A stretch of 64,000 nt of DNA, from IMG/VR virus record IMGVR_UViG_3300023238_000004; one strand, 5' to 3'. Under the pieces are notes generated by a model, which was not told where the DNA came from, did no database searches, and worked only from the letters and a program-made list of their open reading frames with translations. Both the position numbers and the translations under genes were made by a program. Within the stretch, counting starts at the first letter, position 1. Each line of letters starts with the position of its first letter. Positions 22,368 through 39,190 of this stretch are shown piece after piece. Source of the DNA: a virus.

Positions 22368-23117
22368 CTATTTTTTGATATTTGTTGGAATGTCTTCTTT
22401 CTCGTCTCTGTACTTATGTAGTTGGTCAATACTAATACTAGCATCGGCCTTAGACAGAGCGTCGCCATCTTTTACCTTGATGACTTCCGATAAGAACTTC
22501 TCACGATCAATTTCAAGCTTATCAGCTAAAAAGCCAATAAGATTGTTTTGCTTATCAGTCGCAAGGTTGTCGCCCTTAAACTCACCATCCGTTTCTTTCT
22601 TCGCCTCTTCGGTTCGGACAGAATCACGGACAATTTGTTTGGCGTCTTTGTTTGTGATCTCGTCAGCCGAGACACGATTGATGCCTAGTGCCTTTCTCAA
22701 GGCCCTGGCTTCTGCTCTTGTACTGGCAATAGCGGATGGATAGATGGCAAACTTATCGTCAGTATTATCAACATAAGATTCGCCCACCTCTCTAAACACT
22801 GTGCCGTCCTCAAATTCAACTTGGAAGACAATAGTTGCACGGCCAGGATGATCCACATTCGTTGCGGGGAACACTGTAGTAGGCCCACTTGATACAATCC
22901 TGCCTAGAACTAGGTTTGCCACACGTCGAAGCCCTGCCACCTTGGGCATTGGGTCTCCCTGCTCTGGCTGCACCAGTTCAGTTTCGTCAAATAGGCTCAT
23001 CACCCAACCAGCCCACTCTACAGAGGTTGGGTCTGGGGCAGATTCGCCGTTAACTACTAGTTCCACTTTGTCATCGCTCACTACTGTGTCGCTGAAAATC
23101 TCTTCCTTCTCACTCAT
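22368..23117 (-). CDS. Putative single-strand annealing protein (Rad52/Sak-like fold)
   Basis: GLRRVA...beta-hairpin...AIASTRAEARALRKALG pattern plus a short C-terminal helical module (ATDKQ); resemblance judged by eye. Confidence 0.45.
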   Translation of the reverse strand: MSEKEEIFSDTVVSDDKVELVVNGESAPDPTSVEWAGWVMSLFDETELVQPEQGDPMPKVAGLRRVANLVLGRIVSSGPTTVFPATNVDHPGRATIVFQVEFEDGTVFREVGESYVDNTDDKFAIYPSAIASTRAEARALRKALGINRVSADEITNKDAKQIVRDSVRTEEAKKETDGEFKGDNLATDKQNNLIGFLADKLEIDREKFLSEVIKVKDGDALSKADASISIDQLHKYRDEKEDIPTNIKK

Positions 23118-23886
23118 AAGTTATCACCTTTAATTGGGAGTCAATTGTTCCTTCTGAAATCTGTGTAAGAACTTGAACCAAGTCCGTCTCTAGCTGAGCC
23201 AGTTTAGACAGGGCCATCGAACTACTTCGGTTTTCAATCCTGATAAGTTGATATCCTTTACTTAGGAGTACTCCATCTTTCTCAGTATCGAAGCCCACTT
23301 GCTTTCTTAGAGCCTTTTCTCCCCAAATCGGTGCGAAGTGAGAGAGTCCATCTATTTCTATTATAGTCCTTAACGCAGGAATGTACAAATCTATTTCGTA
23401 ATTTTTTTGCGGAATCAGATCTTTCTTGTGAGCCTGGAATCTGTAGCCAGCACCAGCTACGAATTTCTGCACCTCACGCTCAAGCTTAGACCCCTCGATA
23501 GCGGCCTTCCTAATTTGTGCGTGACCCTTCTTCCGCATGTCTTCTCTTTGTGCAGGGGTCATCTTCTTCCAATTGGCCTCAGCCTGCTTACGACGCTTCT
23601 CTTTCTCGGCTTCGTCCATATTGTTCCAATATCGAACAGCAGAATGGCTAATAGCAAGCCTCTCTTCTTTTGTTCTCTTTCTGCCCTTGGTTGGGTGCTC
23701 AACATTGCCCTTCTCTAGTGCGTTCTTCTGGGCTTCTGCTTTGCTTCGTAGTTTCACTCCTTCTTTCTTTAAGAGCCTACGAATCCTATTGGGGTTTGTG
23801 TTGTTCTTTCTGGCAATGTCGTATGTAGACTCTCCGTCTTTATACGCTTGAATTACCTCTGTTTTGTTTAGGTCTGTTTTAGTCAT
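23110..23886 (-). CDS. HTH/NUMOD-containing Vsr/DUF559-like PD-(D/E)XK endonuclease, probably a homing endonuclease
   Basis: N-terminal HTH (STYDIARKNNTNPNRIRRLL), basic helical repeats, C-terminal YEIDLYIP...IIEIDGLSH. Confidence 0.7.
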   Translation of the reverse strand: MTKTDLNKTEVIQAYKDGESTYDIARKNNTNPNRIRRLLKKEGVKLRSKAEAQKNALEKGNVEHPTKGRKRTKEERLAISHSAVRYWNNMDEAEKEKRRKQAEANWKKMTPAQREDMRKKGHAQIRKAAIEGSKLEREVQKFVAGAGYRFQAHKKDLIPQKNYEIDLYIPALRTIIEIDGLSHFAPIWGEKALRKQVGFDTEKDGVLLSKGYQLIRIENRSSSMALSKLAQLETDLVQVLTQISEGTIDSQLKVITYE

Positions 23887-24319
23887 TGATAATATCCACT
23901 ACGTCTTCTAAGTTTTCACATGTCACAACGTCGTGTCTACAAAGCTTACGCTTTACATAGTCAACGTCTGAGCCACCAGCGAGAATGGTGACGTTCTCAT
24001 CTCGTAGGTATTGCAAGTAACCAAATAAATCTCTGTTCTTCTCAAGACCGAAGTAATAATACAGGTCTCTATTGTTAATCTCGTTTGACACGCTCTTGAT
24101 ACCATCAAGGAATGTAACCACTAAAGAGCCCTTAAAATGACAAATATCAGTAGAATTGAAGATGCCAAAAGTTCTTTCTTCTGAACAGCGGCCCACATCT
24201 TGATAGAACAGGCTCGCATCCTTAAACTTTCGGGAAGACACCGCCTTGTTCGCGGCTTTATAAGCAGGAACAGAGACTCTACTGTCTCCTATGTTCTCAA
24301 TAAATACTCCAAAATTCAT
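23879..24319 (-). CDS. Hypothetical protein, 146 aa (possibly a glycosyltransferase-associated fragment)
   Basis: ORF coupled to its neighbours; no clear motif. Confidence 0.5.
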   Translation of the reverse strand: MNFGVFIENIGDSRVSVPAYKAANKAVSSRKFKDASLFYQDVGRCSEERTFGIFNSTDICHFKGSLVVTFLDGIKSVSNEINNRDLYYYFGLEKNRDLFGYLQYLRDENVTILAGGSDVDYVKRKLCRHDVVTCENLEDVVDIIND

Positions 24320-24438
24320 GAGGCCTCCACTGTTACTGTGACTTTGATATCGCCCTTTAATTTATCAAGCCAAGGATGCACATCCTTGTATTTACATGGA
24401 CAGAATTTAGGTCTGTGACCAGTTCCGCAAATTATCAT
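24316..24438 (-). pseudogene. 40-aa remnant of a YspA/SLOG-family gene
   Basis: Translates MIICGTGHRPKFCPCKYKDVHPWLDKLKGDIKVTVTVEAS*. The N-terminal (G/F)TGHRP motif is typical of YspA-like SLOG proteins. AAGGA RBS upstream and ATGA overlap with the next gene. Confidence 0.55.
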
Positions 24439-24460
24439 TTATTATCCTTATTGTTGTAAG

Positions 24461-24470
24461 TATTATACAT
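24461..24470 (-). promoter_or_regulatory. ATGTATAATA variant of the GTGTATAATA promoter motif
   Basis: Intergenic, ~23 nt upstream of the ATG at 24438. Confidence 0.5.
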
Positions 24471-24494
24471 CAAGTCTTTAAAACCCCCATCTTC

Positions 24495-24857
24495 TTAGTA
24501 TCTCATTCCTTTTGGATCAAAAGCTCGTGATCTCTTCATTGGTTTTGTTTGAAAGAAGTCCTTGTCTACTCCCAAGATCTCTCCTAAGATTAAACCCCTA
24601 CCCTCGTGTCCGATCTTGAAATAGCGACACCAACCTTCATCGCTATGTTCGTAGGTGACAAATCTTTCCTTTGGAAAAATCCATCGCCCCTTTTGCTCAT
24701 TGATGGTTGGCTTTAGCTTGTTGTCAAACTTGATATCAATTCCATTGAACCCAAACTCAAAGCCGCTTGTCATGACTTGTTGCTTCGCCTTGAACACGTC
24801 TGGATGCTCTTTCAAATATCGAAATGTAGTTTCGTGCATATACATTACTCTATTCAT
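24495..24857 (-). CDS. Hypothetical protein, 120 aa
   Basis: ORF track; TAATG overlap with the upstream gene. Confidence 0.55.
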   Translation of the reverse strand: MNRVMYMHETTFRYLKEHPDVFKAKQQVMTSGFEFGFNGIDIKFDNKLKPTINEQKGRWIFPKERFVTYEHSDEGWCRYFKIGHEGRGLILGEILGVDKDFFQTKPMKRSRAFDPKGMRY

Positions 24858-25195
24858 TAGTATGTCACCTTGTTGTTTTCTGATATTTTTTTACACATAC
24901 GGATAAACGCTCCTTGGTCTAGGGACATTTTCATGTTATTTACATACTTATGAACCCACTGAACGTTGCCCTCCTTTATGCCTGTTAGATAGCCACAAGA
25001 GATGTCTCCATAATCAACACTTTTTCTAGTACGACAGACGCATCTGCATTTAAGGTCTGATTTTTGGTATCTTCTTTCTGCCGTCTTACCACAAGCAGAA
25101 CAAAACACCTCGTATATCTGAAAACCATTGTGGGACTTTTTAACGAACTTTCCTACGGTCTTAGTCCCAAAGACTTCTCCTGTGTGACTCTTCAT
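24857..25195 (-). pseudogene. Internally deleted HNH homing endonuclease
   Basis: The N-terminal Cys-rich DNA-binding part (CSACG...CRC) joins directly to the C-terminal GNVQWVHKYVNNMK...FIRMCKKISEN. The SxDRIDS catalytic core seen in 45025-45711 is missing. Confidence 0.65.
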
Positions 25196-26961
25196 ACTGC
25201 TACCTTACCAAAGTCAATCTTGTCAAGGGGGTTGTATCCTACGAGTCCCACCTTGTCGTGGGTCCAGTTGAAGATATCAAACTCATTAGGGGCCATTAAG
25301 TTTTGAACATTAGGGTCCAATTCAATAGAGGGCAAGGGTTGCGGCTCTCTTTGGACTTGCTCAATAGCTCCATCTAGTTGATTTTCATAGATATGACAGT
25401 CAACAAATACGCCTGATAGATTGCCCACTTCCAACCCGGCATCTGCGGCCAATAGGCTTAAAAGTAAGCCATAAGAAGCGATGTTGAAGGGCACGCCTAA
25501 CATCAGATCTGCACTACGCTGAGCCCAGAAGAGATTGACCTTGTTATCGATGACTGTGACATTCCAAGCATAGTGACAGGGTGGTAGGGCCATCATGTGG
25601 ATCTGATTGGGGTTCCATGCGGAACAGACCATTCGTCTGTCCATAGGGTTGGTGCGAAGAGTCTCAACGATGTTGGCTAGTTGATTAGTGCCAGTCTTAA
25701 TCTTTGGCCTAGTATCTAAGTTTTCTTTTCTATGGAAACACCATCCACCATGGGTCTTTGTTTTGCTCTTTATAGAAGCTTCTACTGTTTTGACATTTAG
25801 ATTGTATTTTCTACAGAATCTAGCTAAGCCATACTCGTTAAAGAACGTATTGTTGTTTGGGTCTACAGCGTCAAAATAGTATTGTTGGCTAGTATGATTA
25901 GCGTTGTCTTCTCTAGTGGTCCATTGACACCCCCTAAGTCCATAAAAGCCTAGTCCATTAATGTCTTTGTCTAAGTGGTATCCAGACCAATTATCTAATT
26001 TAAACTTCCATCCGTTTACTCTTTGAATGTCTCTTAAAAAGTTCTCGAATATTAGCCAGTTATTGTGAACATAGATTCCGTAAGCACCATAATTTTTATA
26101 ATCTTTGTTGCTTTTATCATAGCATCTTTGGATCATTTGTCTCCATTGGTTTTTTATCGCCTCTACCGTGGATTCCTTATCTTCTTCATAGTGAAGATCT
26201 GGAATCTCAACATCTTTATACTCTCCCATGCAAGCGACACCGCATACCGATGGATAATATGGATCGTAGATTTTCCCTTCTTGTACTTGTGATTTACACA
26301 AATTATCTTTTACAAATCCACTAGTATGAAACTTTACTGAGAACCTACAATTGCAATGCCTGTCTTTGCCGTCGTATGATACTACTGTGTATATCCCATT
26401 TGTCCCATTGAATTCTTTGCCAACTAGATCGAATGGACAATTTTCACTCAGTGAGACCTTAATTGTCTTATTTAGTCCTGTTGTTATTTGTGGAACTGGA
26501 GCATAGTCTCCATCAAAATTAATCCAATTCGCACCATATATGGGACCAAGGCAATTAAGTTCTTTTTGGGCGGCTTTCTTTCGAGAGTTGTATTCTGCAT
26601 TAGATTCTTCATGACTCATTGTGTCGTCGTGAGAGTATTCCTGCATATACTGGTGCCCCTCTACCGCCTCGGGGTTACACCATTCTGACCAAATCTTACA
26701 GTTTCGGTCTTGAAACCACTGCTTGTCTGTGATCCCTTTGATAAATCCTTCAAGTTCGACTCTGATTGCTTTCCAAGCCATCTTTTTCGTCGTAAGTAAA
26801 GGAAACCCATCCCGCATTTCGTGAGAAAAGAAAACGTTAGGTACAGCTTTAGTCCTAATACCCCCATCTACTGGCTCCCATGTGTTACCGACTTTTCTGA
26901 CTGGAGACTTCCACTTGCCGTCTTCCAAAACCCTACTTACCATATCAATGTATTGTTTCAT
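25192..26961 (-). CDS. thyA: Thymidylate synthase with an in-frame HNH endonuclease insertion
   Basis: GFPLLTTKK, LGPIYG, RRMVCSAWNP, ALPPCH, QRSADLMLGVPFNIASY and DCHIY motifs; 589 aa. Confidence 0.95.
   Translation of the reverse strand: MKQYIDMVSRVLEDGKWKSPVRKVGNTWEPVDGGIRTKAVPNVFFSHEMRDGFPLLTTKKMAWKAIRVELEGFIKGITDKQWFQDRNCKIWSEWCNPEAVEGHQYMQEYSHDDTMSHEESNAEYNSRKKAAQKELNCLGPIYGANWINFDGDYAPVPQITTGLNKTIKVSLSENCPFDLVGKEFNGTNGIYTVVSYDGKDRHCNCRFSVKFHTSGFVKDNLCKSQVQEGKIYDPYYPSVCGVACMGEYKDVEIPDLHYEEDKESTVEAIKNQWRQMIQRCYDKSNKDYKNYGAYGIYVHNNWLIFENFLRDIQRVNGWKFKLDNWSGYHLDKDINGLGFYGLRGCQWTTREDNANHTSQQYYFDAVDPNNNTFFNEYGLARFCRKYNLNVKTVEASIKSKTKTHGGWCFHRKENLDTRPKIKTGTNQLANIVETLRTNPMDRRMVCSAWNPNQIHMMALPPCHYAWNVTVIDNKVNLFWAQRSADLMLGVPFNIASYGLLLSLLAADAGLEVGNLSGVFVDCHIYENQLDGAIEQVQREPQPLPSIELDPNVQNLMAPNEFDIFNWTHDKVGLVGYNPLDKIDFGKVAV
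25693..26508 (-). mobile_element. In-frame HNH homing endonuclease domain (~272 aa) inside thyA
   Basis: WRQMIQRCY...YKNYGAYGIYVHNNWLIFENF...LDKD...CQWTTREDN plus a C-terminal NUMOD1-like HTH. No C/S1 or HN/C intein termini; AT-richer than the flanks. Confidence 0.85.
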
Positions 26962-27142
26962 CTTATCCTCCTAATTCTTCCACGATGTCGTTCATACTGT
27001 CTGTAATGTCATTCACGTAGTTTGTGAAGTAGTCTTCAATCTCTATTTCCGTAAAGTAGCGAGGATGATTTTACTCCTTCGTGATCTACATTCAAAGACC
27101 CAGCCATGACTTCTAAAATTGTGTATGGAGCCATGTTAACTC

Positions 27143-27595
27143 CTAACCTGCTTGAATGATTTCTTCAATAACTTCACCTAGATCTTCTCTAAGCTCTACT
27201 CCATACTCTTGGCATGTTATTTCTAAATTCTTTCTTCGGAAATACCCCTGGGGGCACACAACAGCAAGAAAAACATCTCTCTCAAGAGCTTGACCTAGTT
27301 CCAACAGTGTTACTGGAGACTTGGTATTAGGATCAAAATAAAACAAGATGTACTCAACCCGTCTCAAGTAGTGCTGTTCCCATAGAATTTGTGCTTCTAG
27401 TTCAGGACTGTCTTCTGTCCAGCTACTATCCCAGTCGTCCCTTCTTGGGTCGTAGACGTTGTACAGGTGGCCAATTTGTGCCCCTACTCTCTTTTGCCAC
27501 TCTTCTGCGACCCCCATTTCAATGGAGCCAGCTAGAAATACAGAGGGCAAGCTTTCGTCTCTCTCTGTGTCTGTTCCTGGTTTAATTACGGGCAT
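27143..27595 (-). CDS. Nucleoside 2-deoxyribosyltransferase-like protein
   Basis: VFLAGSIEMG...WQ...PRRDDWD...QILWE...TLLELG pattern. Confidence 0.75.
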   Translation of the reverse strand: MPVIKPGTDTERDESLPSVFLAGSIEMGVAEEWQKRVGAQIGHLYNVYDPRRDDWDSSWTEDSPELEAQILWEQHYLRRVEYILFYFDPNTKSPVTLLELGQALERDVFLAVVCPQGYFRRKNLEITCQEYGVELREDLGEVIEEIIQAG

Positions 27596-27726
27596 CTTTC
27601 ACCTTTGGCCATTCGTTGTAAATGTCTGTCGCCCCGCATACTTTGTTCTTAATCTTTCTGGCGTGTCTTTTCTCCACGGCCACTATTACTTCATGAATCT
27701 CTTGCTTTTGTTTTTTTTTCTTCTTT

Positions 27727-28008
27727 CTAGGCAGAGTGCTTCTTCCTTGTGACCCATTGAATTATTCTCTCTATAGTGGAGGGTTCTTTGTGTTTGCCAA
27801 TGTCAAAGGCGTGATTAGCAATGTGAATCATATCTCCACCACCAATTAGTGCGATCTCCCTAAATCCAGCTTCCATGTCTTTTGTAAAAGGTATACCAGA
27901 CATGTAGAACTTAGTACCGTAGGCTGGACACATCTTGTGCGTCCCTTCTCTACAGCAGCCTCGACACTTGTCAAAGTCTTCATGCCAAATATCAAGTGGT
28001 TTTTGCAT
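27727..28008 (-). CDS. Hypothetical protein, 93 aa
   Basis: ORF track; Cys cluster CRGCC...C. Confidence 0.5.
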   Translation of the reverse strand: MQKPLDIWHEDFDKCRGCCREGTHKMCPAYGTKFYMSGIPFTKDMEAGFREIALIGGGDMIHIANHAFDIGKHKEPSTIERIIQWVTRKKHSA

Positions 28009-28801
28009 CTTGGTTTCTCGCTAATACAGGAACATACCCCTTCCTAAGAATCCAGTTAAAGTACTGAAACATCCCCTGACTAGCATCACCCAGCCGAGAA
28101 GTGGCGTTCATGTCTTCTCCATACTTACTTCCATTTAACGAGCCCCAAAGTTCTTTGTTGTCTTTTGGGTGCTTAGGAACGTAAGTGTTACAATTTGCCG
28201 TATTCCAAGCTGCGTAAGAGATATTGATATCCTCCCCATAGTTCAACGGTAGAACATCTGGAGCATCTATCCAGAAGGCTTTCAAGAGGGTCTTGTGGAA
28301 GAACCAACAGTGTCCACCAAAGTCTACCTGTTCTATCTTCTCGTTTTGACTTGGCCAACCAACTGCGTCATAGCTTTCGGGCATTGGATAGTTGTTGCTC
28401 TTTATCCTCACTCCACGAGTAGTCAAAACAGCTTGATTACCAATCTCTTCAATTGTGTCAATGCAGTTCTCAATCCAACACTTACCTGGGATCGTGTCGT
28501 CATCTGCGACACACACGTAGGAGGTGTCTGCATTAAGAGCGTAGGCAAACCTAGCCCACACACCCATGTTGCTATTGGCGATAGCCGACTTGGAGCCATC
28601 TACAACATAGCGATCAAAGGAGTCTTCAATTGTGTTCTTGCCGTCGTAGTTGCCCCAGAAGAGAAACTTGGGCGTTCCCGTCGACTGGTTTCTGTAGGCT
28701 TCGTATTGTTCTTTTGCAGCGTGGGGTCTCTTAAACCCGTTCATCACCACTGTTACCGATGTATCTGGCATCTTTTTCTCCATAAGGGCCGTTTTCGCCA
28801 A
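27992..28801 (-). CDS. GT-A fold (family 2-like) glycosyltransferase
   Basis: VTVVMNGFKR N-terminal strand, VCVADDDTIPG acidic motif, YGEDI. The true start may be ~30 nt downstream. Confidence 0.7.
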   Translation of the reverse strand: MAKTALMEKKMPDTSVTVVMNGFKRPHAAKEQYEAYRNQSTGTPKFLFWGNYDGKNTIEDSFDRYVVDGSKSAIANSNMGVWARFAYALNADTSYVCVADDDTIPGKCWIENCIDTIEEIGNQAVLTTRGVRIKSNNYPMPESYDAVGWPSQNEKIEQVDFGGHCWFFHKTLLKAFWIDAPDVLPLNYGEDINISYAAWNTANCNTYVPKHPKDNKELWGSLNGSKYGEDMNATSRLGDASQGMFQYFNWILRKGYVPVLARNQDAKTT

Positions 28802-29567
28802 TCTTTTCGAGTAAGGCTGTCACTCTATTATAGGGAGAATGGCCCGATTCGACAACCTCTTTTTGTAAAAATACCGGATTTCCCTCTCGCTGAATCAATC
28901 CACACTTTCCACCGTAGTAGGCCGCGTCGAAAAACACTTGATTAGACTTTGTTACAATGATCTCTTCGTAGTTTTGGTAAAGCTTTGACAATACCGCAAT
29001 GCTCACATACTCATCAACTTGATTAGAAGCTTTCATATCAATAGAGTTTGTTAAGACGTGATACGTCTCTCTATCTTCAAACAACGGACTAACCAAGTCA
29101 AGTTCTTGTTGAGAGTCTACAATAAATAGCGTCTCTATGGCATATCTTGGAACTTTAAGTCCAGGTGTATCCTTTAGGTAAAAATCAGCACAAGGGGCGA
29201 CAACGTCTATGTCTGGCAGCATTTTGTAGTTTTGAAAACAGTAATGGTTCTCCATCATGTCGTCAATAACCTGTAGGTGCTGTGGCGTGGCTCCGGTGAC
29301 GTTAATTACAGTCTTGATCCCCTCTCCTTTGGTTCTCTTTGCAATGTCTTTAGTCAGCATTAGATAATGAGTAAAAAAGATATCTGGCTTAAAGTCATCA
29401 AAGACATCAAAGGCACTTTCTTGGTTATTCCAAAACTTTACCTCGTTGCCCTCTTCTCTTAGGAACTTAGCAATATAGATCGCCTCAGTTGAAATTTCTG
29501 ACGAATAGTTGTGTACCAATGTTCTCATATCTATCTTTAACCCTGTGGTATGTTTTGATGTTGTCAA
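28731..29567 (-). CDS. Glycosyltransferase-like/associated protein, 278 aa
   Basis: AFDVFDDFKPDIFF segment resembles GT-B N-domains; cluster context. Confidence 0.5.
   Translation of the reverse strand: MTTSKHTTGLKIDMRTLVHNYSSEISTEAIYIAKFLREEGNEVKFWNNQESAFDVFDDFKPDIFFTHYLMLTKDIAKRTKGEGIKTVINVTGATPQHLQVIDDMMENHYCFQNYKMLPDIDVVAPCADFYLKDTPGLKVPRYAIETLFIVDSQQELDLVSPLFEDRETYHVLTNSIDMKASNQVDEYVSIAVLSKLYQNYEEIIVTKSNQVFFDAAYYGGKCGLIQREGNPVFLQKEVVESGHSPYNRVTALLEKIGENGPYGEKDARYIGNSGDERV
28827..28855 (-). promoter_or_regulatory. Sigma70-like promoter TTGTCG-N17-TATAAT
   Basis: Exact 17-nt spacer; preceded by GG, as in the copies at 37178 and 43925. Confidence 0.7.
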
Positions 29568-30276
29568 TTTTCACCGCCTTGTCTTTTGTCATTACTTGGT
29601 GAAGATTGTATTTAGTCTTATTGAACTCATTCAAGGCCTCAAAGATCAGTTTGTTCTTAAAGGCTTCTGTAGAGACAATCCTTCTTAGGGACTCTATTGT
29701 CTCTCTGCTGTGCAAGTAAAAGATCTCGGACCACAAGTCGGTTAACCCATAGGACATATTCGTAACAAGTCCATTTTCATCACATACGCTGCCAATCTCT
29801 AACGTAGACTTTTTCTTGCCACGCTTATGACTTAGGATGTATGGCACCTCTTCGTGTATCTTAACCAGTTCAGGATATAGAACCAACTCCCCGTTGCAAA
29901 CCAATAGCGAATCCGAAGACACGTTGTTTAAGCACAATCTGAGAGTCTCACAGCAATTGGTCTCGTCGAAGAGTTGGTTCTCTACTATCCTGATGTTTTG
30001 GTTCTTATACTTCGTCTTTATGTGTCTTGAGACACGGTCAGCTTCAAAGCCGCAACAGACTATGATCTCATAGTTCTTATGTACGGCTCTAATCGCTTCA
30101 ATTTGAATGTCAAGCAAGCAGTGCGACCCGACGCAAAGTAGTGATGGCGGACCATAGGACTTCATCCTATAGCCAGGCTTGGCAGACAAGATAGCAATTG
30201 TTACCTTGTCCCCTTTCTTTCTATTCTTTTTATCGCCTCTCGCTGACGTTATAGAGTTGACTCTGTTTCTTGGCAT
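29485..30276 (-). CDS. Sugar-phosphate nucleotidyltransferase-like protein (GlmU/MobA-type NTP transferase fold)
   Basis: IAILSAKPGYRMKSYGPPSLL resembles the LAAGxGxRM...PKxL motif; also IIVCCGFE and LLVCNGELV. Likely start is MPRN at 30276. Confidence 0.7.
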   Translation of the reverse strand: MPRNRVNSITSARGDKKNRKKGDKVTIAILSAKPGYRMKSYGPPSLLCVGSHCLLDIQIEAIRAVHKNYEIIVCCGFEADRVSRHIKTKYKNQNIRIVENQLFDETNCCETLRLCLNNVSSDSLLVCNGELVLYPELVKIHEEVPYILSHKRGKKKSTLEIGSVCDENGLVTNMSYGLTDLWSEIFYLHSRETIESLRRIVSTEAFKNKLIFEALNEFNKTKYNLHQVMTKDKAVKIDNIKTYHRVKDRYENIGTQLFVRNFN

Positions 30277-30277
30277 G

Positions 30278-31015
30278 TTAGAACTTCTTATAGAGATTGG
30301 CAGTCTTTGCTCCATCCAAAAGACTATCCTCGAAATCTTGGTACGTCTTTCCATCACTCATTTGATAGAATTTTAGAGCAGAGGACATAACCATTACACT
30401 GTCAGACTTGGAGGCGACAATGAAAACCCCATAGTTTACAGAGAAATCATATTCGATTGCTCTCATTAGATCTTCTGTCCACGGAGTCACTGGAGACATA
30501 GAGAAGAACTTCCCTTTGACATATCTCAATAGTTCCGCATCAATCTCTGGCTTGGTCAGATCGTCGTGGTACTGGATAACGCGGAACTTCTTCTTACCCA
30601 TCCATTCGTGGACCATCTGAGAGACAATATCCTTATTGTCATAAGTGCCCCTATGTGCCAAAATCACGTCAACACTTTCGTAGTAGAAAATGCTTCTGAG
30701 ACTAGTTTGTAGTTCAAGCAATTGAGGCCTAGTGTACTCATCAACGTCTAAGATTAGTGTGAAACTTGGACGTAGCTCTTCTCTAATCTTTTCTAGGTTT
30801 GCTTCGCCCCAGCTTGGAGGCCTATAAGAAGGACAAACCCCTTTGATGACATAGAATTCCTTTTCATTGTCAGTGGCTTCTGTGACCTTGTCTGCTGCAA
30901 AAGATTCCAGCCTCTTGGCCTTGCATCCAGACTGATTGTCTCCATCGTATACGGCGAACACGCAGTCTTTACAGATGGTCTCTAGTGATTGTTTACCTTG
31001 TGGCTGTAACGTCAT
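30278..31015 (-). CDS. Hypothetical protein with N-terminal Cys cluster and a possible degenerate GT-A domain
   Basis: CKDC...C...C followed by alpha/beta pattern; cluster context. Confidence 0.45.
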   Translation of the reverse strand: MTLQPQGKQSLETICKDCVFAVYDGDNQSGCKAKRLESFAADKVTEATDNEKEFYVIKGVCPSYRPPSWGEANLEKIREELRPSFTLILDVDEYTRPQLLELQTSLRSIFYYESVDVILAHRGTYDNKDIVSQMVHEWMGKKKFRVIQYHDDLTKPEIDAELLRYVKGKFFSMSPVTPWTEDLMRAIEYDFSVNYGVFIVASKSDSVMVMSSALKFYQMSDGKTYQDFEDSLLDGAKTANLYKKF

Positions 31016-31406
31016 AGTTGAATCCGTTGAGTGTTAGAGTTTCAATTTGTAGTCCAGATCTGCGAATGATCTCTTTTACTGTTGGGACTGACAAGAGAGA
31101 ACGGCAAGAATACACAATGGTGTTGAAGTCTTGGTCGTTCATCTTCCCCTTGATAAGTGCCCGACACAGCATCCTAGCATCTACTCCATTAAACCTTAAC
31201 AGCCCACCACGTCTAAGTTTGCACGATAGGGCGGTCAAGAATCCGATTGAAGCCTCAAGGGGCAGACTTGCAAAACAGTTCTGTACTGAGATCTCTTCAC
31301 ACTCGTTGTCTGAAATGTGGTCAAGATTAACATCTACGCCTGTCATATAGACAAACTCATACCCGGTTGGTCCCTTCTCGCCTGGGTTCAAAATCATTAG
31401 TTTCAT
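30993..31406 (-). CDS. Truncated methyltransferase-like protein, 137 aa
   Basis: DHISDNECEEI...KLRRGGLL pattern resembles the C-terminal half of class I methyltransferases; no SAM-binding GxGxG seen. Confidence 0.4.
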   Translation of the reverse strand: MKLMILNPGEKGPTGYEFVYMTGVDVNLDHISDNECEEISVQNCFASLPLEASIGFLTALSCKLRRGGLLRFNGVDARMLCRALIKGKMNDQDFNTIVYSCRSLLSVPTVKEIIRRSGLQIETLTLNGFNYDVTATR

Positions 31407-32398
31407 AAACTTGCCTCGTATGTTTTGGTGAAGATTTCATTCCACTCTTGAACAAATCTGTCCGAAGAGCATTTATCAAGAACTGTCTGCCTAGCGGCCT
31501 TTCCTAGTTTCTTGGCGTAGTCAGGGTCTCTAGCGAGCCTGTCAAGAGCCTTAGAAGCTTCCTCTGAGGTATTGGCGATTAAACCATTAACGCCGTCCTC
31601 GACGAACTCAGAGATCCCACAGGTGCCAGTAGTGACAACTGGACACTCACAAGCCATCGCCTCTAGGAGACTCATCGGCATTGGGCTGTCCAGGGTTGTG
31701 TTCAGATAAGCTTGGCACTCGCTGTAATAGAACGCCAGTCTTTCTGAATTGCCCTCACTAACAAACGTGTCATTGATTTGATCGCTGTTTTTTCCAATAA
31801 CAGTCATCATGTACTTTTCAGTATTGTAAAGCTCTTCCCACATCTTGTAGTTTAAGCAATAGTCTCTAGCCTTATAGTCGTTTGCTACTGTTAAGATGTA
31901 TTTGCCCGTCCTTTCTGTTTTTGGACTAAAGACATCTGAGTCAACACAGTGATGAATCACATTGTTGTTTTTCTGAATACCAACACTAGACCAAACATAG
32001 TTTGAATGATGCGTAATGAAGATATTAACATCACCAATCATGGCCCCCATTTGATTCAAAGCGGATTGGCTCAAGTCAATTGTGGGCGTTGTGTGCTCAA
32101 GGGCAATGATGGGGATCTGTAGCTTTTGATTGATCTGATTGGCTAGATCAAACTGCCCAAACCTGTTCTGTGACAAGATCAAGTCGTACCCATCGTAGGG
32201 ATAGAACTTGTCTAGTGGCATAAGGTGATAGTTGTCTAGTCCATAGTCTTCAACCGCCCCCATACCCTTAATGTTTGCAGCATAGAAGTTGTGACCAGTC
32301 TTGGCCAACTCTGTCTCGTATCTACGGTGAGTACAAAACGTTAATATATTTAATTTTTTCTTAGGTTCTCTTCTAACGTAATTAACTACATTTGTCAT
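31403..32398 (-). CDS. GT-B (family 4-like) glycosyltransferase
   Basis: YLNTT..SPMPMSLLEAMACECPVVTT...EFVEDGVNG motif. Confidence 0.85.
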   Translation of the reverse strand: MTNVVNYVRREPKKKLNILTFCTHRRYETELAKTGHNFYAANIKGMGAVEDYGLDNYHLMPLDKFYPYDGYDLILSQNRFGQFDLANQINQKLQIPIIALEHTTPTIDLSQSALNQMGAMIGDVNIFITHHSNYVWSSVGIQKNNNVIHHCVDSDVFSPKTERTGKYILTVANDYKARDYCLNYKMWEELYNTEKYMMTVIGKNSDQINDTFVSEGNSERLAFYYSECQAYLNTTLDSPMPMSLLEAMACECPVVTTGTCGISEFVEDGVNGLIANTSEEASKALDRLARDPDYAKKLGKAARQTVLDKCSSDRFVQEWNEIFTKTYEASL

Positions 32399-32474
32399 TG
32401 TTTTCTGTTATCCTTTTACATAGTTCCAAAAAGTAATCTTGATCGTGAGTCCATTTCATATAATTCACATGCTT
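32382..32474 (-). pseudogene. 3' stub of an HNH endonuclease gene
   Basis: Translates KHVNYMKWTHDQDYFLELCKRITENNDKCS*, matching the C-termini of 24857-25195 and 45025-45711. Contains the AAGGA RBS of the 32398 start. Confidence 0.65.
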
Positions 32475-32475
32475 G

Positions 32476-33582
32476 TTATGCTAGAAGTAGCTCCTTCATT
32501 GTGTTGCCGACCAATTGGTGCGAGAAGTCCTTCGCCCTCTTTAAGCCTCTGGATCTTCTGTCCACTCTGTTCTCGTAGTAGTGTCGCATTGTTCTCTTGG
32601 CTTCGCTTTCGTCTATCTGCCTCCAGGTATCCCTAGCGGTAAACAAGTCTGGGAATGCAGCATCAACAGAATCGCACACAGAAGACTGACAAGAAACACA
32701 GTAACCAACCTCGTCTTCATCCCACTGAATGTACTCGCTAGTTCCAGGTAGGTCTGTCACAATGGGAGTATTGCCAAACGCCATCGCATCAAAGGCTGGA
32801 ATCGACCAAGCTTCTCCGTGTGAGAAGTTAAGGAAGCAATCACCATACTGATGAAGAGACATTATTTGATCTTCTGTGCTATGGCCGGTGATAACAAATT
32901 CTTTGTGATAGTCTTCTTTGTTTGAATACAGCCTAGATCTAATCTTTATGTTATTACAAAGCCCTTCAATCTGATGTTTAACCTTTTCTGCTGGGATGTT
33001 GAACTTATTAAGCTTCAATATCAGAGAAACAGGCTCAGACCTATCGAACTCGGAGTGAAAGCACCTAACCACCGATTCGATGTTCTTTCGATCATTAAAA
33101 TCAGAGATACAGTAGAATTTAAACGTGTGGTCGGCACCTGGAATCTTAACTTCTGGATATGACTTAGCATACTTAGTAGGATCACAACAGTGATGCACAA
33201 CAGAAGCCTTAAAGCCTTCCATAGACAAGTCACTCCTAAGGCCGTCGTTAGGAACCCAAAGTTCATCTACTAGTTGTAGGTGACTGTTCCAGTCTAAGTG
33301 ATTGGTCTCATATGTTTCAGAAACAAAGTAGGCTATGTTCTTCTTATACTTAGTAGTGCCCACTAGATGGTGGGGCAATACATGTTGCACACAATGAGTA
33401 GCGTCGTGACAATCCTTACGCTCAAACTCTACCAACTCCGGTGGAGTATTAACTTGTCCGGTAAGGTCAATGTTGCGACACACAACATCAACACCAGCGG
33501 CGTCGAGAGCTAAAATGTTGTCAAGTGCTGCTCGCCCCCACCCTGTCGGCTCATTTTGGTGACCCAAGTATAGCACTTTCAT
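32476..33582 (-). CDS. GT-B (family 4-like) glycosyltransferase
   Basis: MKVLYLGH...GWGRAA; SHGEAWSIPAFDAMAFGNTPIVT. Likely start 33582. Confidence 0.8.
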   Translation of the reverse strand: MKVLYLGHQNEPTGWGRAALDNILALDAAGVDVVCRNIDLTGQVNTPPELVEFERKDCHDATHCVQHVLPHHLVGTTKYKKNIAYFVSETYETNHLDWNSHLQLVDELWVPNDGLRSDLSMEGFKASVVHHCCDPTKYAKSYPEVKIPGADHTFKFYCISDFNDRKNIESVVRCFHSEFDRSEPVSLILKLNKFNIPAEKVKHQIEGLCNNIKIRSRLYSNKEDYHKEFVITGHSTEDQIMSLHQYGDCFLNFSHGEAWSIPAFDAMAFGNTPIVTDLPGTSEYIQWDEDEVGYCVSCQSSVCDSVDAAFPDLFTARDTWRQIDESEAKRTMRHYYENRVDRRSRGLKRAKDFSHQLVGNTMKELLLA

Positions 33583-33701
33583 TTTTGAGCTTCCACTATT
33601 TTTTTGCAGACCCGAATGAAGTCTGACTGATTCATGTCCATTTTCATTCTGTTTACGTCTCTCGTTACCCATTGGCAATTTTCCTTTGTATGGAGATATG
33701 G
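33579..33701 (-). pseudogene. 3' stub of an HNH endonuclease gene
   Basis: Translates (PYLH)TKENCQWVTRDVNRMKMDMNQSDFIRVCKKIVEAQK*; its TGA overlaps the ATG of the downstream GT (ATGA). Confidence 0.7.
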
Positions 33702-33715
33702 TTACTTCTCGTATT

Positions 33716-36421
33716 TTAGATTCTCTTTTGTTCCCAATAGTTCCTCTTCTCTGCTATCTTGAGCATTTCCCGGTAAGCTAGATCAAAGTTAAAGGGTATT
33801 CTTACCACCTTACCATCAAAACCTGCCGAACTCTCATTCTCATAAACCTTAGAGGTAGAAGAAGTCCTACTCTCATACATAAGGTCTCTAGTAAGACGAG
33901 ACTCAAACTGAGTGTTAAGTCTGTCAGGCTCTCCTAGTGCATTTACAATCAACCACTGAGCCAATTGCTTGTGCGTAGTCTGCGGAGGAATCTCTGGTTT
34001 TGGTTTTGGTTGGTGAATTCTTGGTGCAGACTCCCAAGTTTTCTCTACTGGTTCAATCTCGAATGAATCGAATACCTTTGCAAGTATGTCTCCAGTCTGA
34101 TCCCACTGATAATGCTTCTTAAATCTGTCTAAAGTTATGTGCCCCAAAGCGATCCTGTCTTCTTTGTCGATATCGAAGAACCTACCGAAAACCATCGCGG
34201 TGTCTTCGTTATCTGGAACGGCCCTATAGCATCCTGTCTCTAGTTCTTTGTATAGAGCTTTGGGCTTCAAGGGCACTCCGGCTAGATTGCTAACAACACT
34301 GCTCATAGCACTGTAGTCAACAGAAACAACGGGGATACCACAAGCAGCCGCCTCTACTTGTGGAAGGCCAAATCCCTCGCTGTTAGCATATTGAACATAT
34401 AAGTCAAAGCAATTCATCACTTCTGACAACTGTTCATAGCTAGCACCCTGCTTAACATTGCACATGGTGGCGTTGTATTTACCAGTGAAAGGCGATTCAC
34501 AGATAGCCCCCGCAAACAATGAAGCAAATGTCTTGTTGGTCTCTGGGCAAATGTAAGTAAAATAAACACTTGAAGAGACACAGTTCTGCTGTAGTAACTC
34601 TGGGATATCCCAACCTAGGTCTGGATAACTTGTGTGACAGTACAGCTTGTACTCATTAGGATTCTCTTGTTGCCCTAAGAACAGAGCCCACGCCTCAAAG
34701 AGATCTGGGTAAAGCTTGCGTCTTTGATTACGCATAACCGTGCCCACAATCTTTATATCCTTATCTAGCCCCAGGTTTTCTCTACAAACAGCTTGGTCCA
34801 TTGGCTTATACGCAGGATTAGCAGATGGAGGGGCTGTCCCAACATAGTTGATCTTCCCTCCAGACTGTTCCTTCATAACGTTGCCAGACCACTCAGAGTA
34901 AGACAGAACTGCGTCAGCACTCGCATAAGTACTAATCCACTGTCTAGCTTGTGGTGCTGAGTCTGCCGTTGGCATAATTACCCACTTGAACATCTTCCTA
35001 AAGGGAGATCGCTCTACAAACTCGCAATTATGAATACAAAAAGAAGATACATAGGTATTGTCTTCTTCTACTTCAAAGTTATGAACTTGTTCTCCATAGG
35101 ATTGTTTAATAACCTCTTTAACAGTTAACCAAGCGTAGCCATTTTTAATTCTTGTCGCTTTAGCTATTTCTTTATTGAGGAGGTTGTCATAAATAGTCTT
35201 AAATCCCTCTAAGCTATTAGACCTAAAAGAGAATATGTATCTAAAATAATCTTTGTCGATTCCTTTGATATTATTTTTATTTAGATTGAAGGATGGCAAT
35301 ATTCCAATCCTTAGGCACATCCTAAATACTTGGTGTGCTAATTGCTCACTCTTTGTGCAGTAAGAAGCTCTTTCCTTGTAATAACCTCCGTCACCCCTAA
35401 ATAAGCCACACAAAAACGACCTTATACACTCGTTATTTGAGAAAAACACCTCATCAGAAAGCTTCTTGTCTCCAGCCAAAGAACCGCAAAACTTTAGACA
35501 ATCTTGTGATATTCTTTTGCCGTAACACCTTACTATTGCCGTATTCCCAAGTATCTTTATTTTAGCTTCTTTATCATAAAAAACCTTAACAAGAGAGATA
35601 AAGTCATCAATATGACTAGACTCATTAGCATTAAAGGTTAACTGAATACCTTTGTATTTGTTGTCCTCTTTTAAGCCCTCGTACATTATGCAGCCTTCGG
35701 CCATATAGTAGCCTAAGAATCTACAAAAGTCATTCTTGTGATTTTTATCTCCCTCTTTGTCAATTGGGTAAACCAATATGTCGTTTTTCTCAATGCCTTG
35801 GGAGTCTACCCATTCTAAATTTTTAGGTGAAAACTTATGCACTGGTAGGCTTTTCTCTCCATTTCTTTTTAAGCAATAGACCGGATGATCGTCTGTTAGT
35901 TCTACATTAAATGGGCAATTTTGCACATTAATAGTGTGGAGATCTCCGAAATAACTCTTTTTAAATGTGTTTATTACTCTTCTATATCTTCCTTCGTGTG
36001 TTAAGACCAAGTCATCGACTTTTATGTCTTTGATCTTCTTGATGGAGTTTTTACATACGATATTAGTATTAGGAGTTAAGCACATCCAGAAGTCTCTGAT
36101 ATCAAAGACAATGTCTGGCTTAAAGTCTAGGCAAACTTCTTCAAAGATGAACTCGCCAAATTGATTGAAGGGACTTGAGTCGTATGACTGCATCTCTTCT
36201 CTACTAGCTCTAGGTTGAAACTCCTTGTTTGGTTGTACTCCATAGTACCTCCAAGGCAAAGATAGCCCCCTAGGATCGTTTCTTTGACCATAGGCGGCTA
36301 ATTCGGCTAGTTCGTATTTTCCTGTGGAGTTTAGATACTCCATGATTTCTCTAGTGTAGGTAGCATAACCAGTGTTTAGAAAGGTCGCCTCACTACAGAA
36401 GAGGATTCTTTTTTTTCTCAT
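33716..36421 (-). CDS. GT-B (family 4-like) glycosyltransferase containing a LAGLIDADG intein
   Basis: ILFCSEATFLNTGYA N-terminus; NSEGFGLPQVEAAACGIPVVSVDY motif; intein between FWM and CEF. Confidence 0.88.
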   Translation of the reverse strand: MRKKRILFCSEATFLNTGYATYTREIMEYLNSTGKYELAELAAYGQRNDPRGLSLPWRYYGVQPNKEFQPRASREEMQSYDSSPFNQFGEFIFEEVCLDFKPDIVFDIRDFWMCLTPNTNIVCKNSIKKIKDIKVDDLVLTHEGRYRRVINTFKKSYFGDLHTINVQNCPFNVELTDDHPVYCLKRNGEKSLPVHKFSPKNLEWVDSQGIEKNDILVYPIDKEGDKNHKNDFCRFLGYYMAEGCIMYEGLKEDNKYKGIQLTFNANESSHIDDFISLVKVFYDKEAKIKILGNTAIVRCYGKRISQDCLKFCGSLAGDKKLSDEVFFSNNECIRSFLCGLFRGDGGYYKERASYCTKSEQLAHQVFRMCLRIGILPSFNLNKNNIKGIDKDYFRYIFSFRSNSLEGFKTIYDNLLNKEIAKATRIKNGYAWLTVKEVIKQSYGEQVHNFEVEEDNTYVSSFCIHNCEFVERSPFRKMFKWVIMPTADSAPQARQWISTYASADAVLSYSEWSGNVMKEQSGGKINYVGTAPPSANPAYKPMDQAVCRENLGLDKDIKIVGTVMRNQRRKLYPDLFEAWALFLGQQENPNEYKLYCHTSYPDLGWDIPELLQQNCVSSSVYFTYICPETNKTFASLFAGAICESPFTGKYNATMCNVKQGASYEQLSEVMNCFDLYVQYANSEGFGLPQVEAAACGIPVVSVDYSAMSSVVSNLAGVPLKPKALYKELETGCYRAVPDNEDTAMVFGRFFDIDKEDRIALGHITLDRFKKHYQWDQTGDILAKVFDSFEIEPVEKTWESAPRIHQPKPKPEIPPQTTHKQLAQWLIVNALGEPDRLNTQFESRLTRDLMYESRTSSTSKVYENESSAGFDGKVVRIPFNFDLAYREMLKIAEKRNYWEQKRI
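35027..36082 (-). mobile_element. Intein (352 aa) with LAGLIDADG endonuclease
   Basis: Starts CLTPNT; block B LTDDHP; FLGYYMAEG and FLCGLFRGDG; ends VHNFEVEEDNTYVSSFCIHN with +1 Cys. Confidence 0.92.
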
Positions 36422-37207: not shown

Positions 37208-39190
37208 CTAAATATCTGAAATTTTTTCAACGATCAGACTTCCGTCGCCCTTCTCTGAACTTCCGTAGATCATCACGTTGTTTCCTTCAAATAAGCTGTA
37301 CTTATTGTCTTCTCTCGCCTCTGGAAAGACCACAACGCTGTCAATTGAGCAGGTTTCGTCCTCAATGGTCAGGAAGGACATCTCTTTTCCCTTACTTGCC
37401 CCTTCTTTCTTAACCTTCGTGTTAAACACTCGGGTAATGTTTGCGGCGATTGTTAGCTTCTTGCCCTTTTTCCCGTCTGCTAGTTCCTTACAGGTTGTAT
37501 TGCCGCACATGTCTGTGGTTTCAATCTTAGACATAGAGACAGGGCAACCTAAGAACTTCACTTCCTGGTCAATGATCCACTCTGGATCGTCTTCTAGGTC
37601 GTAGGGTGGGTTCTGTAGCATCTTAATCTCGTTCAAGATAATCTGCTTTCTGGACTCTTTACTGGTCCCGCCGCCCTCTTTTTTTGTAGGTGCTAGATCT
37701 CTAAAGCAAGACTGCAAATCCTTCCATCTTCTCTTAGGGTAGTTTTCTATTACCCAGTTGGTCTCAGCCTTCGTCAAGATACGAAAGATCTCATAGTCAT
37801 ATAAGACCTTGTTTCTCGTAACCTTGTCTTTGATTCCACGGAAGAACCCAATAGACCCAAGCGTCTTGAATACCGTAGAGTTCACCTTAGGAGAGAAGAA
37901 CAACAAGATCTCCATCCACGATGTGTTCTCAATCTTTTTATTTAGATGTACAAATAGATCTTCAACAGCAATGAAAGCCTTGTCCCCATTCTTTCCGGTC
38001 AAAGACTTAATGTCCTTAATGCCAAAGTAAATGGTGTCTCCAACGCAATTGAATTGACGTTTGAAGTTAGCAATACTAGGAGTTTTCAATTGAAGATCAA
38101 AAAGCTTAGCTTCTGACGCTAGTTCATAAACCTCTTGGTGAGCGTCCTGCTTGTCTTTTGCGTAACGAAAATAGGCTACAAAGAACTGTTTGATATAGTG
38201 TGCCTTGAAATAAGCACTCCAATATGAATCCAATCCATAGGCAACCGCGTGAGAATTACTGGTGGCTATTTTATTAGCATAAAAAAGATGGCTATCACTA
38301 TCAACCTCAATGTCCATAGTGGGCATTGTGCCCAAGCTTTTTATTCTAACTATTTTACTAGATTTCATGTCTACACAATCTTGAACAACTATCTCGTGAA
38401 AATATAACAGAATATCAGAAAGAGGTCTAATAACACCATCTTTGCACAAGAATTTATGCTCCATTGTGCATTTTATAGTTTTACCACACTCTAGCTCTAA
38501 CTCATAGACCTCTAGTGACCCGTGGTCATAAGTCTCTAAGACTTTTACGTATTGGTCAGACAATAAACAGGGAGATAGTACAAAATCTCCAGCTTTAATT
38601 TCTGATAGCTGCTTTTCACCGTCTGGTGTTTGTACTACTGAATCCTTCGTAATAGACTTGTTAAAACTGTATCGAGCAGACTTCTCAATCCACCCGAAGA
38701 TTTCTTCTGCGTCTTTGGCTTCAACCGTCCCTACTTTCTCGCAACCAATGATAAAGTCTTCCTTGACCTTTGCCATCACGTCTGCTTTCTTTTTACCAAT
38801 GGCCTTTCTAAGAACATCAGCCTCTGACTCAGAGAAACCCGCAAGCTCTTTGGCTATAATCATAGCTTGTTCTTGATAGATCAAAACCCCGTAGGTTGGA
38901 GCTAAGAATGGCTCAAGAGAAGGATGTAGATACTCAACGGGTTCTAGTCCGTGCTTTCTGTCTACATAGTGCTGGGACATAGACTTGCCCTGATACATAG
39001 CTTTCAAAGAGCCAGGACGAAGAATAGAGATCAGAGCCGCAAGCTCTTCCATATTTTCTGGCTTGACTTTCTTGGACCACGATCTTCCAAGATTGCTTTC
39101 AAGTTGAAAAATACCCTTGGTTCTACCTTCCGCGAAAAGCTTCCAGACTTCTGGATCATTCATCGGAATATTATCAATGTCAACTGTCAT
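37208..39190 (-). CDS. dnaE: DNA polymerase III alpha (DnaE), C-terminal piece (fingers/HhH/OB) with a mini-intein
   Basis: GIFQLES, ILRPG, TYGVLIYQEQ, LRKAIGKKK, YSFNK|intein|SHAVAY, IYFGIKDIK, OB-fold MSFLTIEDET..IDSVVVFPE. Confidence 0.92.
   Translation of the reverse strand: MTVDIDNIPMNDPEVWKLFAEGRTKGIFQLESNLGRSWSKKVKPENMEELAALISILRPGSLKAMYQGKSMSQHYVDRKHGLEPVEYLHPSLEPFLAPTYGVLIYQEQAMIIAKELAGFSESEADVLRKAIGKKKADVMAKVKEDFIIGCEKVGTVEAKDAEEIFGWIEKSARYSFNKSITKDSVVQTPDGEKQLSEIKAGDFVLSPCLLSDQYVKVLETYDHGSLEVYELELECGKTIKCTMEHKFLCKDGVIRPLSDILLYFHEIVVQDCVDMKSSKIVRIKSLGTMPTMDIEVDSDSHLFYANKIATSNSHAVAYGLDSYWSAYFKAHYIKQFFVAYFRYAKDKQDAHQEVYELASEAKLFDLQLKTPSIANFKRQFNCVGDTIYFGIKDIKSLTGKNGDKAFIAVEDLFVHLNKKIENTSWMEILLFFSPKVNSTVFKTLGSIGFFRGIKDKVTRNKVLYDYEIFRILTKAETNWVIENYPKRRWKDLQSCFRDLAPTKKEGGGTSKESRKQIILNEIKMLQNPPYDLEDDPEWIIDQEVKFLGCPVSMSKIETTDMCGNTTCKELADGKKGKKLTIAANITRVFNTKVKKEGASKGKEMSFLTIEDETCSIDSVVVFPEAREDNKYSLFEGNNVMIYGSSEKGDGSLIVEKISDI
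38255..38656 (-). mobile_element. Mini-intein (134 aa), Ser1 ... Ser-Asn, +1 Ser
   Basis: SITKDSVVQTPDG; CTMEHKF (block B); MDIEVDSDSHLFYANKIATSN. Removal restores FNKSH. Confidence 0.88.

Follow-up and report, generated by a model that had tools for sequence, protein, structure and literature searches.

We have analyzed a stretch of 64,000 nt (hereafter called the window) from the virus record IMGVR_UViG_3300023238_000004, in which the thymidylate synthase gene thyA contains a complete homing-endonuclease-like module, inserted in frame at the position of a surface loop of the enzyme (ThyA). The module seems to be a selfish element which persists in this enzyme by being tolerated and not by being spliced out. 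We consider it probable, at roughly 70%, that the module is a mobile, non-splicing element of the endonuclease type which is tolerated in the ThyA loop and drives its own homing.

The open reading frame (ORF) of the fusion protein, P0001, runs uninterrupted over window positions 25192-26961 on the minus strand and comprises 589 codons and a stop codon. The only Pfam family found in P0001 is Thymidylat_synt (PF00303, E 4.5e-71, 239.5 bits compared to a cut-off of 24.3), which is matched by two stretches about 270 residues apart, and PHROG 2081 ('HNH endonuclease') matches residues 205-422. From alignments with insert-free relatives the borders of the insert could be placed at residues 152 and 424, giving 273 aa or 819 nt (window 25690-26508) flanked by ...GANWINFDG and TNQLANIVETL... 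in P0001. The insert replaces a variable loop of ThyA which is 18-46 residues long in the insert-free relatives. All catalytic residues of ThyA are present in P0001 (E69, W91, Y142, R442, R443, C462, R482, S483, D485, N493, H523, Y525), including the catalytic Cys, the Arg pairs binding deoxyuridine monophosphate (dUMP), and the Asn, His and Tyr by which membership in PF00303 is judged. They are conserved in 50-51 of 51 insert-bearing sequences, despite a divergence of the ThyA parts to 40-60% identity. In the AlphaFold2 (AF2) model of the full-length protein, with a predicted local distance difference test score (pLDDT) of 93.7 and a predicted template modelling score (pTM) of 0.89, the predicted ThyA core superposes on the solved thymidylate synthases of human, rat and white spot syndrome virus (WSSV) with template modelling scores by target of 0.87-0.89.

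These data confirm the gene anatomy proposed in an initial annotation of the window, namely one ThyA ORF without internal stop codon, an in-frame insert of about 272 aa before TNQLANIVETL in a variable ThyA loop, and intact catalytic motifs; the alignments give 273 aa at the same site. A further thyA or a thyX, whose presence, together with a failure of the fusion to complement, the initial annotation had seen as speaking against its proposal, was looked for in the whole virus record (175.8 kb, 100% complete according to CheckV). Neither is present and P0001 is the sole thyA. The embedded copy of the module is likewise the only one in this genome, free-standing copies included, and a near-identical cultured phage was not found by megablast.

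Neither intron nor intein signatures could be recognized in the gene. An Rfam search over window positions 24000-28000 gave no match to a group I or group II ribozyme core even at E<=10, and a group I or group II intron was therefore ruled out. Pfam did not detect Hint or Intein_splicing in the insert at E<=10 and no intein was among its fold matches, which rules out an intein. As positive controls, Pfam does detect Intein_splicing/Hint in the DnaE pieces of the same window, and Hint in P0172 and P0181, two ThyAs which carry the same insert and a LAGLIDADG intein at a second site. Nor do the junctions look like those of an intein, with D152 as first residue, ...KTG at the end and T425 at position +1. 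Position +1 is occupied by various residues in the family (T, A, I, Y, F, V, E), in most cases not by C, S or T. None of the 117 embedded copies has a break in the reading frame at either junction, and the linkers show conservation at the protein level. This argues against an intron, which needs no continuity of the frame. The initial annotation had noted that Cys/Ser1, the TxxH block, the HN/C terminus and a group I intron core are all missing, and the searches bear this out.

Separate translation of the module was ruled out, as none of the codons ATG, GTG and TTG occurs in frame between residues 120 and 215. We also ruled out an endonuclease encoded out of frame, as described for the ShiLan domain (see below): none of the other five frames contains an ORF, each of them having 15-34 stop codons, and it is the thyA frame in which the homology is found. 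Lacking an internal start and an open alternative frame, the module can be produced only as part of the ThyA chain. It is very improbable that the insert is removed by an unrecognized splicing process, be it of a novel intein-like type or at the RNA level, giving a mature ThyA without insert. For such a process it can be said that T425 could in principle act as +1 nucleophile, in P0001 alone; speaking against it are the lack of a Hint fold or motifs, the unconserved junctions with a +1 residue which is usually not C, S or T, the lack of an RNA family match, and the frame and protein-level linkers kept through all 117 copies.

The distribution of the insert points to a mobile element. The contigs L009-L011 are syntenic with window positions 24368-31495 at about 70% nucleotide identity and do not contain the insert; their ThyAs are 79-83% identical to P0001 in the C-terminal part. 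The closest insert, with 56% identity, is found in P0006, in a different genomic neighbourhood. In a ThyA-only tree of 120 sequences the presence of the insert requires at least 14 state changes (gains or losses), at least seven of which are forced by well-supported branches. P0001 lies nested in a ThyA clade (support 97 and 95) together with five sequences, all of them insert-free, whereas in the insert tree it forms a group with P0006 and P0008 (support 97). This grouping is rejected by the ThyA data in the approximately unbiased test (p-AU 0.00015), and so is a second insert clade (p-AU 0.0065). However much the genomes and the neighbouring genes differ, the insert always occupies one and the same site in thyA.

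In addition, flanking sequence appears to have been transferred together with the insert. P0001 is a mosaic: over residues 1-91 and 425-540 its best agreement is with the syntenic relatives without insert (73-100% identity), whereas residues 132-151, adjoining the insert, are 85% identical to P0006 and 45-60% identical to the syntenic relatives. The DNA homology of P0001 to these relatives ends at position 26689, and residues 92-151 probably constitute an upstream co-conversion tract. The cultured Bacillus phages 015DV002 and 015DV004, with and without insert, share their gene order and are 98.6% identical upstream and 97.0% identical downstream; 015DV002 has an 818-bp in-frame insert in place of 8 bp. 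Downstream of the insert the mismatches between the two phages amount to 21, 22, 6 and 1 per 60 nt and then to about zero, which marks a sharp downstream co-conversion tract of about 150 nt. The insert of P0001 has a GC content of 36.6% (34% at third codon positions, GC3), compared to 43-47% (GC3 44-51%) for the flanking ThyA parts. For P0029 and P0032 the insert is less diverged than the host gene (proportion of nonsynonymous differences, pN, 0.089 versus 0.174). The insert thus bears the traces of repeated horizontal transfer with co-conversion, and it shows the hallmarks of a homing element: sporadic occurrence among close relatives, conflict between trees, and co-conversion next to the insertion. 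The suggestion of the initial annotation that the element homes into its own host gene is supported by these observations, and the insert-free alleles which it had proposed to look for in relatives exist in L009-L011 and in 015DV004.

When the insert alone was modelled with AF2 (pLDDT 89.6, pTM 0.79) a three-part fold was obtained, consisting from the N to the C terminus of an SH3/Tudor-like barrel, an atypical HNH-like core and a NUMOD-like DNA-binding domain of the I-HmuI type. I-HmuI (PDB 1u3e) is the intron-encoded HNH nicking homing endonuclease of Bacillus phage SPO1. The C-terminal domain matches this structure in VIA-align (Z 7.3, root-mean-square deviation 2.1 over 58 residues) as well as in Foldseek (probability 0.99), the family profile aligns to 1u3e residues 108-170 with an E value of 9.2e-06, and relatives of the module are matched by PF22083 (I-HmuI NUMOD-like). 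In the AF2 model the core contains a beta-beta-alpha unit (strands 328-331 and 346-349, helix 350-355), and it gives a weak VIA-align match to PacI (Z 4.3). The fold relatives in the predicted-structure libraries (AFDB) are phage proteins named homing endonuclease, HNH or AP2, and the matches include another 'thymidylate synthase' of 564 aa. No NCBIfam model matches the module, and Pfam does not find an AP2 domain in it, the C-terminal domain being NUMOD-like instead. The initial annotation had described the insert as HNH with a NUMOD1-like helix-turn-helix (HTH). Both descriptions hold in part: the predicted fold is HNH-like but has D331-K332-D333 and N/Q353 in place of a conserved His, and the C-terminal HTH is NUMOD-like but of the I-HmuI type (PF22083) and not Pfam NUMOD1. 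The insert begins with a sequence (PQITTGLNKTIK) that looks like a second copy of the ThyA 'DQL...' helix. This resemblance was judged to be probably due to chance, since the sequence belongs to a linker motif which is kept in close fusions and absent from the Bacillus and Klebsiella fusions.

The near-invariant residues of the core are C280-Y281, G292 and D331-K332-D333, as seen in 117 embedded, 57 free-standing and 20 other members of the family. No His is conserved anywhere in the module family. In I-HmuI the catalytic residues are D74, H75 and N96 (PMC12724721). The distance of 22 residues between D331 and N353 is the same as that between D74 and N96, and K332 may occupy the position of H75, judged solely by this equal spacing and the predicted secondary structure. 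Besides the spacing, the thyA module shares with I-HmuI the homologous C-terminal domain and the order of nuclease core and DNA-binding domain; unlike I-HmuI, which is encoded in a group I intron and uses a catalytic His, it has Lys in place of H75, an extra N-terminal barrel and no intron. As the general-base His is absent from the core, the nuclease activity of the module is only putative. The strong conservation of the D-K-D motif, on the other hand, speaks in favour of a site with a function. ThyA is an obligate homodimer, and I-HmuI-like enzymes nick one strand. The fusion would therefore bring two nickase-type modules together. It is conceivable, though doubtful, that the module is an active nuclease representing a new His-Me finger variant, D-K-D with Lys for His, and that its pairing by the ThyA dimer yields a double-strand-cutting homing enzyme, with ThyA serving as expression vehicle and dimerisation scaffold.

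Several points weigh against our preferred reading. Lys is found at the canonical HNH His position in 186 of the 194 family members and His in none, and residue 353 is either N or Q, with Q in about half of the embedded copies. The module could thus be nuclease-dead or use an unknown chemistry. The sequence alignment to I-HmuI is confined to the C-terminal DNA-binding domain; extending it into the HNH motif failed, both with the profile and via a free-standing copy from the Bacillus phage vB_BceH_LBC2. That splicing takes place neither at the RNA nor at the protein level is something we infer from sequence data. The candidate sequences were gathered with the fusion as query, and the sampling is therefore biased. 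As the host may supply thymidylate (dTMP), a viable phage is no proof of a functional fusion ThyA. Finally, the dN/dS values from three related fusions (insert 0.08-0.15, ThyA 0.08-0.12), which indicate purifying selection on both ThyA and the module, are rough because dS is near saturation.

The missing His and the frequent Q at position 353 would fit a nuclease-dead DNA-binding passenger, unspliced as well, which is mobilised in trans by other nucleases or by ordinary recombination of co-infecting phages. Other homing endonuclease genes do lie near thyA, a Vsr/DUF559-type gene at 23110-23886 and an Endonuclease_7 gene in L009. There is also a precedent for trans-homing (PMC2790892); T4 MobE is reported to mobilise the defunct I-TevIII in trans. 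However, the near-invariance of D-K-D, C-Y and G292 in free-standing and embedded copies alike, at a dN/dS of about 0.1, is hard to explain for a dead core. The constant thyA site across very different genomes and neighbours, and the occurrence of free-standing copies in classic homing-endonuclease positions, also speak against a passenger, and we regard this explanation as unlikely.

It is less probable still that the insert is a domesticated domain, kept because it benefits the phage by excluding the markers of competitors, by tethering ThyA to the DNA or the replisome, or by regulation. Purifying selection on the module is as strong as on ThyA, the pTM of 0.89 of the full-length model suggests a defined, albeit predicted, arrangement of the domains, and there are many long-lived fusion lineages. 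A competitive advantage has moreover been reported for an intron endonuclease (PMC11620839). A domain of lasting use to the phage is at odds with the nearest relatives being without the module and with the repeated gains or losses and the tree conflict. It is also at odds with the existence of insert variants which have no DNA-binding domain or no D-K-D motif and fit a homing cycle of invasion and decay. The barrel can be missing as well, being absent from 12 of 13 'short' variants, and variants of all three kinds are as expected of elements decaying after fixation.

According to the homing reading, which we prefer, a free-standing gene of an I-HmuI-related homing endonuclease would have become fixed in frame in a ThyA surface loop which tolerates variation in length. 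The whole chain of 589 aa would be translated and the insert retained in the mature protein. The ThyA fold would close around the insert, and the module would project from it as a separate three-part unit. Neutrality would then come from the tolerance of the loop, without splicing of RNA or protein. On co-infection the module would direct a cut or nick near the loop-coding site of an insert-free thyA allele, and recombinational repair would copy the module together with a flanking stretch of thyA into this allele. For the protein itself we infer that the chain persists at full length, with ThyA remaining active, and that the nuclease which drives homing is the embedded module. A non-splicing route with the endonuclease tolerated as a loop domain of ThyA had already been put forward in the initial annotation, and every computational test that was run is in agreement with it. 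The bifunctional ThyA-nuclease which the initial annotation envisaged is only putative, given the Lys that replaces the catalytic His of HNH enzymes in this family.

This ThyA insert was not described in the literature searched. Among published cases, the ShiLan domain of mycobacteriophage DNA methylases comes closest, a frame-preserving, non-splicing and actively homing insert which is predicted to form a tolerated loop (Arsenault, Gosselin & Gogarten 2025, PMC11855218). In ShiLan the HNH endonuclease is read in another frame, from a GTG start of its own, and what the insert contributes in frame is a peptide hairpin with no function (PMC11855218). In both cases the insert in the phage enzyme preserves the frame, shows no features of an intron or intein, is disjunctly distributed and is associated with conversion tracts and an endonuclease of the HNH type. 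In thyA, unlike in ShiLan, what is read in frame is the endonuclease-like module itself, which has neither an internal start nor an alternate ORF and is His-less and I-HmuI-related; the host gene, thyA, is different as well.

With inteins containing homing endonucleases, some of which occur in phage thymidylate synthases, the module shares that it is a selfish in-frame insert, translated with the host enzyme and spread by homing; inteins, however, excise themselves by means of Hint, which the thyA insert does not have. Group I introns are known from the thyA/td genes of phages, namely T4 td with I-TevI and Bacillus phage beta22. The same host gene is targeted by homing endonucleases in these cases and in ours, which makes thyA a homing-endonuclease hot spot. 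A split thymidylate synthase has been described for phage Bobb (PMC4528723). In contrast to td, beta22 and Bobb, where the element is RNA-spliced or splits the gene and lies at a different site, the thyA module has no ribozyme and the frame runs through.

Homing without an intron is known from free-standing homing endonuclease genes and from 'genes in pieces', for example the seg and mob genes of T4 and the nrdA gene of Aeh1, which is split by mobE. The module resembles them in intron-free homing with co-conversion of flanking markers, and its own free-standing relatives lie beside nrdB and thyA. Free-standing genes, however, have their own start and stop codon and lie between genes or split them, whereas the embedded module has neither and is part of a single polypeptide. 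An atypical HNH-like core, missed by Pfam HNH_3, is also characteristic of the IPA-HNH proteins of ICP1-like phages, which are widespread and encoded next to essential genes (Barth, Dunham & Seed 2023, PMC10448857); they are defined with a C-terminal AP2 domain and are free-standing (PMC10448857). The core of the thyA module is similarly atypical, some of its fold relatives are AP2-domain proteins, and it may be related to IPA-HNH. Its DNA-binding domain differs in being I-HmuI NUMOD-like and not AP2, and ICP1 did not occur among the tblastn matches sampled.

Several GenBank phages have a ThyA with the same module in the same position, namely phages of Bacillus (015DV002, Kioshi), Klebsiella (KP13-7, phiKp_21) and Escherichia (UE-S1, ph0011); their fusion genes are annotated merely as thymidylate synthase or hypothetical protein. 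In a representative library of 1.84 billion proteins the module profile matched 82,398 clusters at E<=0.001. The best 150 of these 82,398 matches contain 143 new proteins: 66 ThyA fusions, 57 free-standing proteins and 20 longer ones. There are thus at least 66 further ThyA-fusion clusters, counted at 50% identity, among these best matches. In-frame modules in other host enzymes were not recognized among them, the 20 long non-ThyA proteins having no recognizable host domain. Fusion clusters in the ESM Atlas have 54 and 124 members.

The free-standing relatives, of 231-248 aa, match the module from end to end, and in Bacillus phages they are encoded directly downstream of nrdB. Phage 015DV002 has a free-standing relative too, gp125. 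Compared with these proteins the fusions are extended by linkers at both ends of the module, a conserved one of about 35 residues on the N-terminal side and a short one on the C-terminal side. The Bacillus phage vB_BceH_LBC2 (L014, 1441-2034) has a free-standing copy of 197 aa which is short at the C terminus, contains LDKD and lies about 440 bp upstream of an insert-free thyA; it may be an intermediate between the free-standing and the embedded state. In the metagenomic ThyAs P0172 (909 aa) and P0181 (871 aa) the module at the loop site is accompanied by a canonical LAGLIDADG intein about 45 residues downstream, so that selfish elements of two kinds share one gene. At the site of this intein, several other fusions have an additional insertion of 30-45 aa. 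In Staphylococcus phages of the Kayvirus type, such as vB_SauM_Remus, the core of the module family is found inside a region annotated 'similar to DNA polymerase' (Remus 74284-74532, H94); this copy could be intron-encoded or another embedded one.

The usual view is that homing endonuclease genes survive in essential genes only by way of self-splicing introns or inteins, or else between genes. The thyA module points to a third route, in which an entire endonuclease-type protein is translated in frame with its host enzyme and stays in the mature form as a loop domain, yet remains mobile with co-conversion. The related fusions in phages of Bacillus, Klebsiella, Escherichia and uncultured hosts extend the case, which bears on the co-evolution of mobile elements and enzymes and on the origin of multidomain proteins. 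For annotation it means that genes labelled plainly 'thymidylate synthase' can contain such elements, which screens for introns and inteins miss. The permissive insertion site of ThyA could be of use in protein engineering, and the conservation of D-K-D in place of the His which defines His-Me finger nucleases raises a question of nuclease chemistry. With the cultured phages 015DV002 and 015DV004, one with and one without the insert, the idea is directly testable.

Table 1. Parts of the thyA-plus-module gene P0001 in window coordinates
Feature	Position	Strand	Basis
Whole thyA-plus-module ORF P0001	25192..26961	-	ORF call, Pfam
ThyA N-terminal part, residues 1-151, ends ...LGPIYGANWINFDG	26509..26961	-	First Pfam stretch, alignments
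Probable upstream co-conversion tract, residues 92-151	26509..26688	-	Identity comparison with P0006 and syntenic relatives
In-frame insert, residues 152-424	25690..26508	-	Alignments, GC
SH3/Tudor-like beta-barrel, residues ~173-230	26272..26445	-	AF2 model, VIA-align
Helical and beta-beta-alpha core, residues ~258-355	25897..26190	-	AF2 model, fold matches, conservation
I-HmuI-type NUMOD-like DNA-binding domain, residues ~356-415	25717..25896	-	Profile, VIA-align, Foldseek
ThyA C-terminal part, residues 425-589 and stop codon; R442/R443, C462, R482, D485, N493, H523, Y525	25192..25689	-	Pfam, alignments

The free-standing homing-endonuclease-like gene at window positions 23110-23886 (minus strand) lies 1.3 kb downstream of thyA and codes for a 258-aa protein in which an HTH at the N terminus is combined with a PD-(D/E)xK nuclease of the Vsr/DUF559 type. 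In L009 the Endonuclease_7 gene (6007-6396) is situated directly downstream of thyA, in place of the Vsr/DUF559-type gene. Upstream of thyA (27143-36421, minus strand) there are a nucleoside 2-deoxyribosyltransferase-like gene (27143-27595) and a block of glycosyltransferase-like genes. A gene for dihydrofolate reductase (DHFR) was not found in the genome. Together with the glycosyltransferase neighbours this makes a role as dUMP hydroxymethylase conceivable, and the ThyA homologue might serve a pathway for modified bases of this kind rather than being a plain thymidylate synthase.

At the beginning of the window (159-21085, plus strand) four very large ORFs of 3166, 597, 1619 and 1216 aa are arranged in a row, the one of 597 aa being without PHROG match. 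On the minus strand a DnaE-type DNA polymerase is distributed over at least three ORFs between positions 37208 and 43896. The first of them (42715-43896) contains PHP, the N-terminal part of pol3_alpha and a terminal intein/Hint fragment, the second (41207-42085) the C-terminal part of pol3_alpha, and the third (37208-39205) the finger domain and an OB fold, together with an intein-like segment inside the ORF at about residues 190-380. Between the three lie ORFs of unknown kind and an RNase_T exonuclease. This DnaE has the look of a gene in pieces, containing a split intein as well as a mini-intein.

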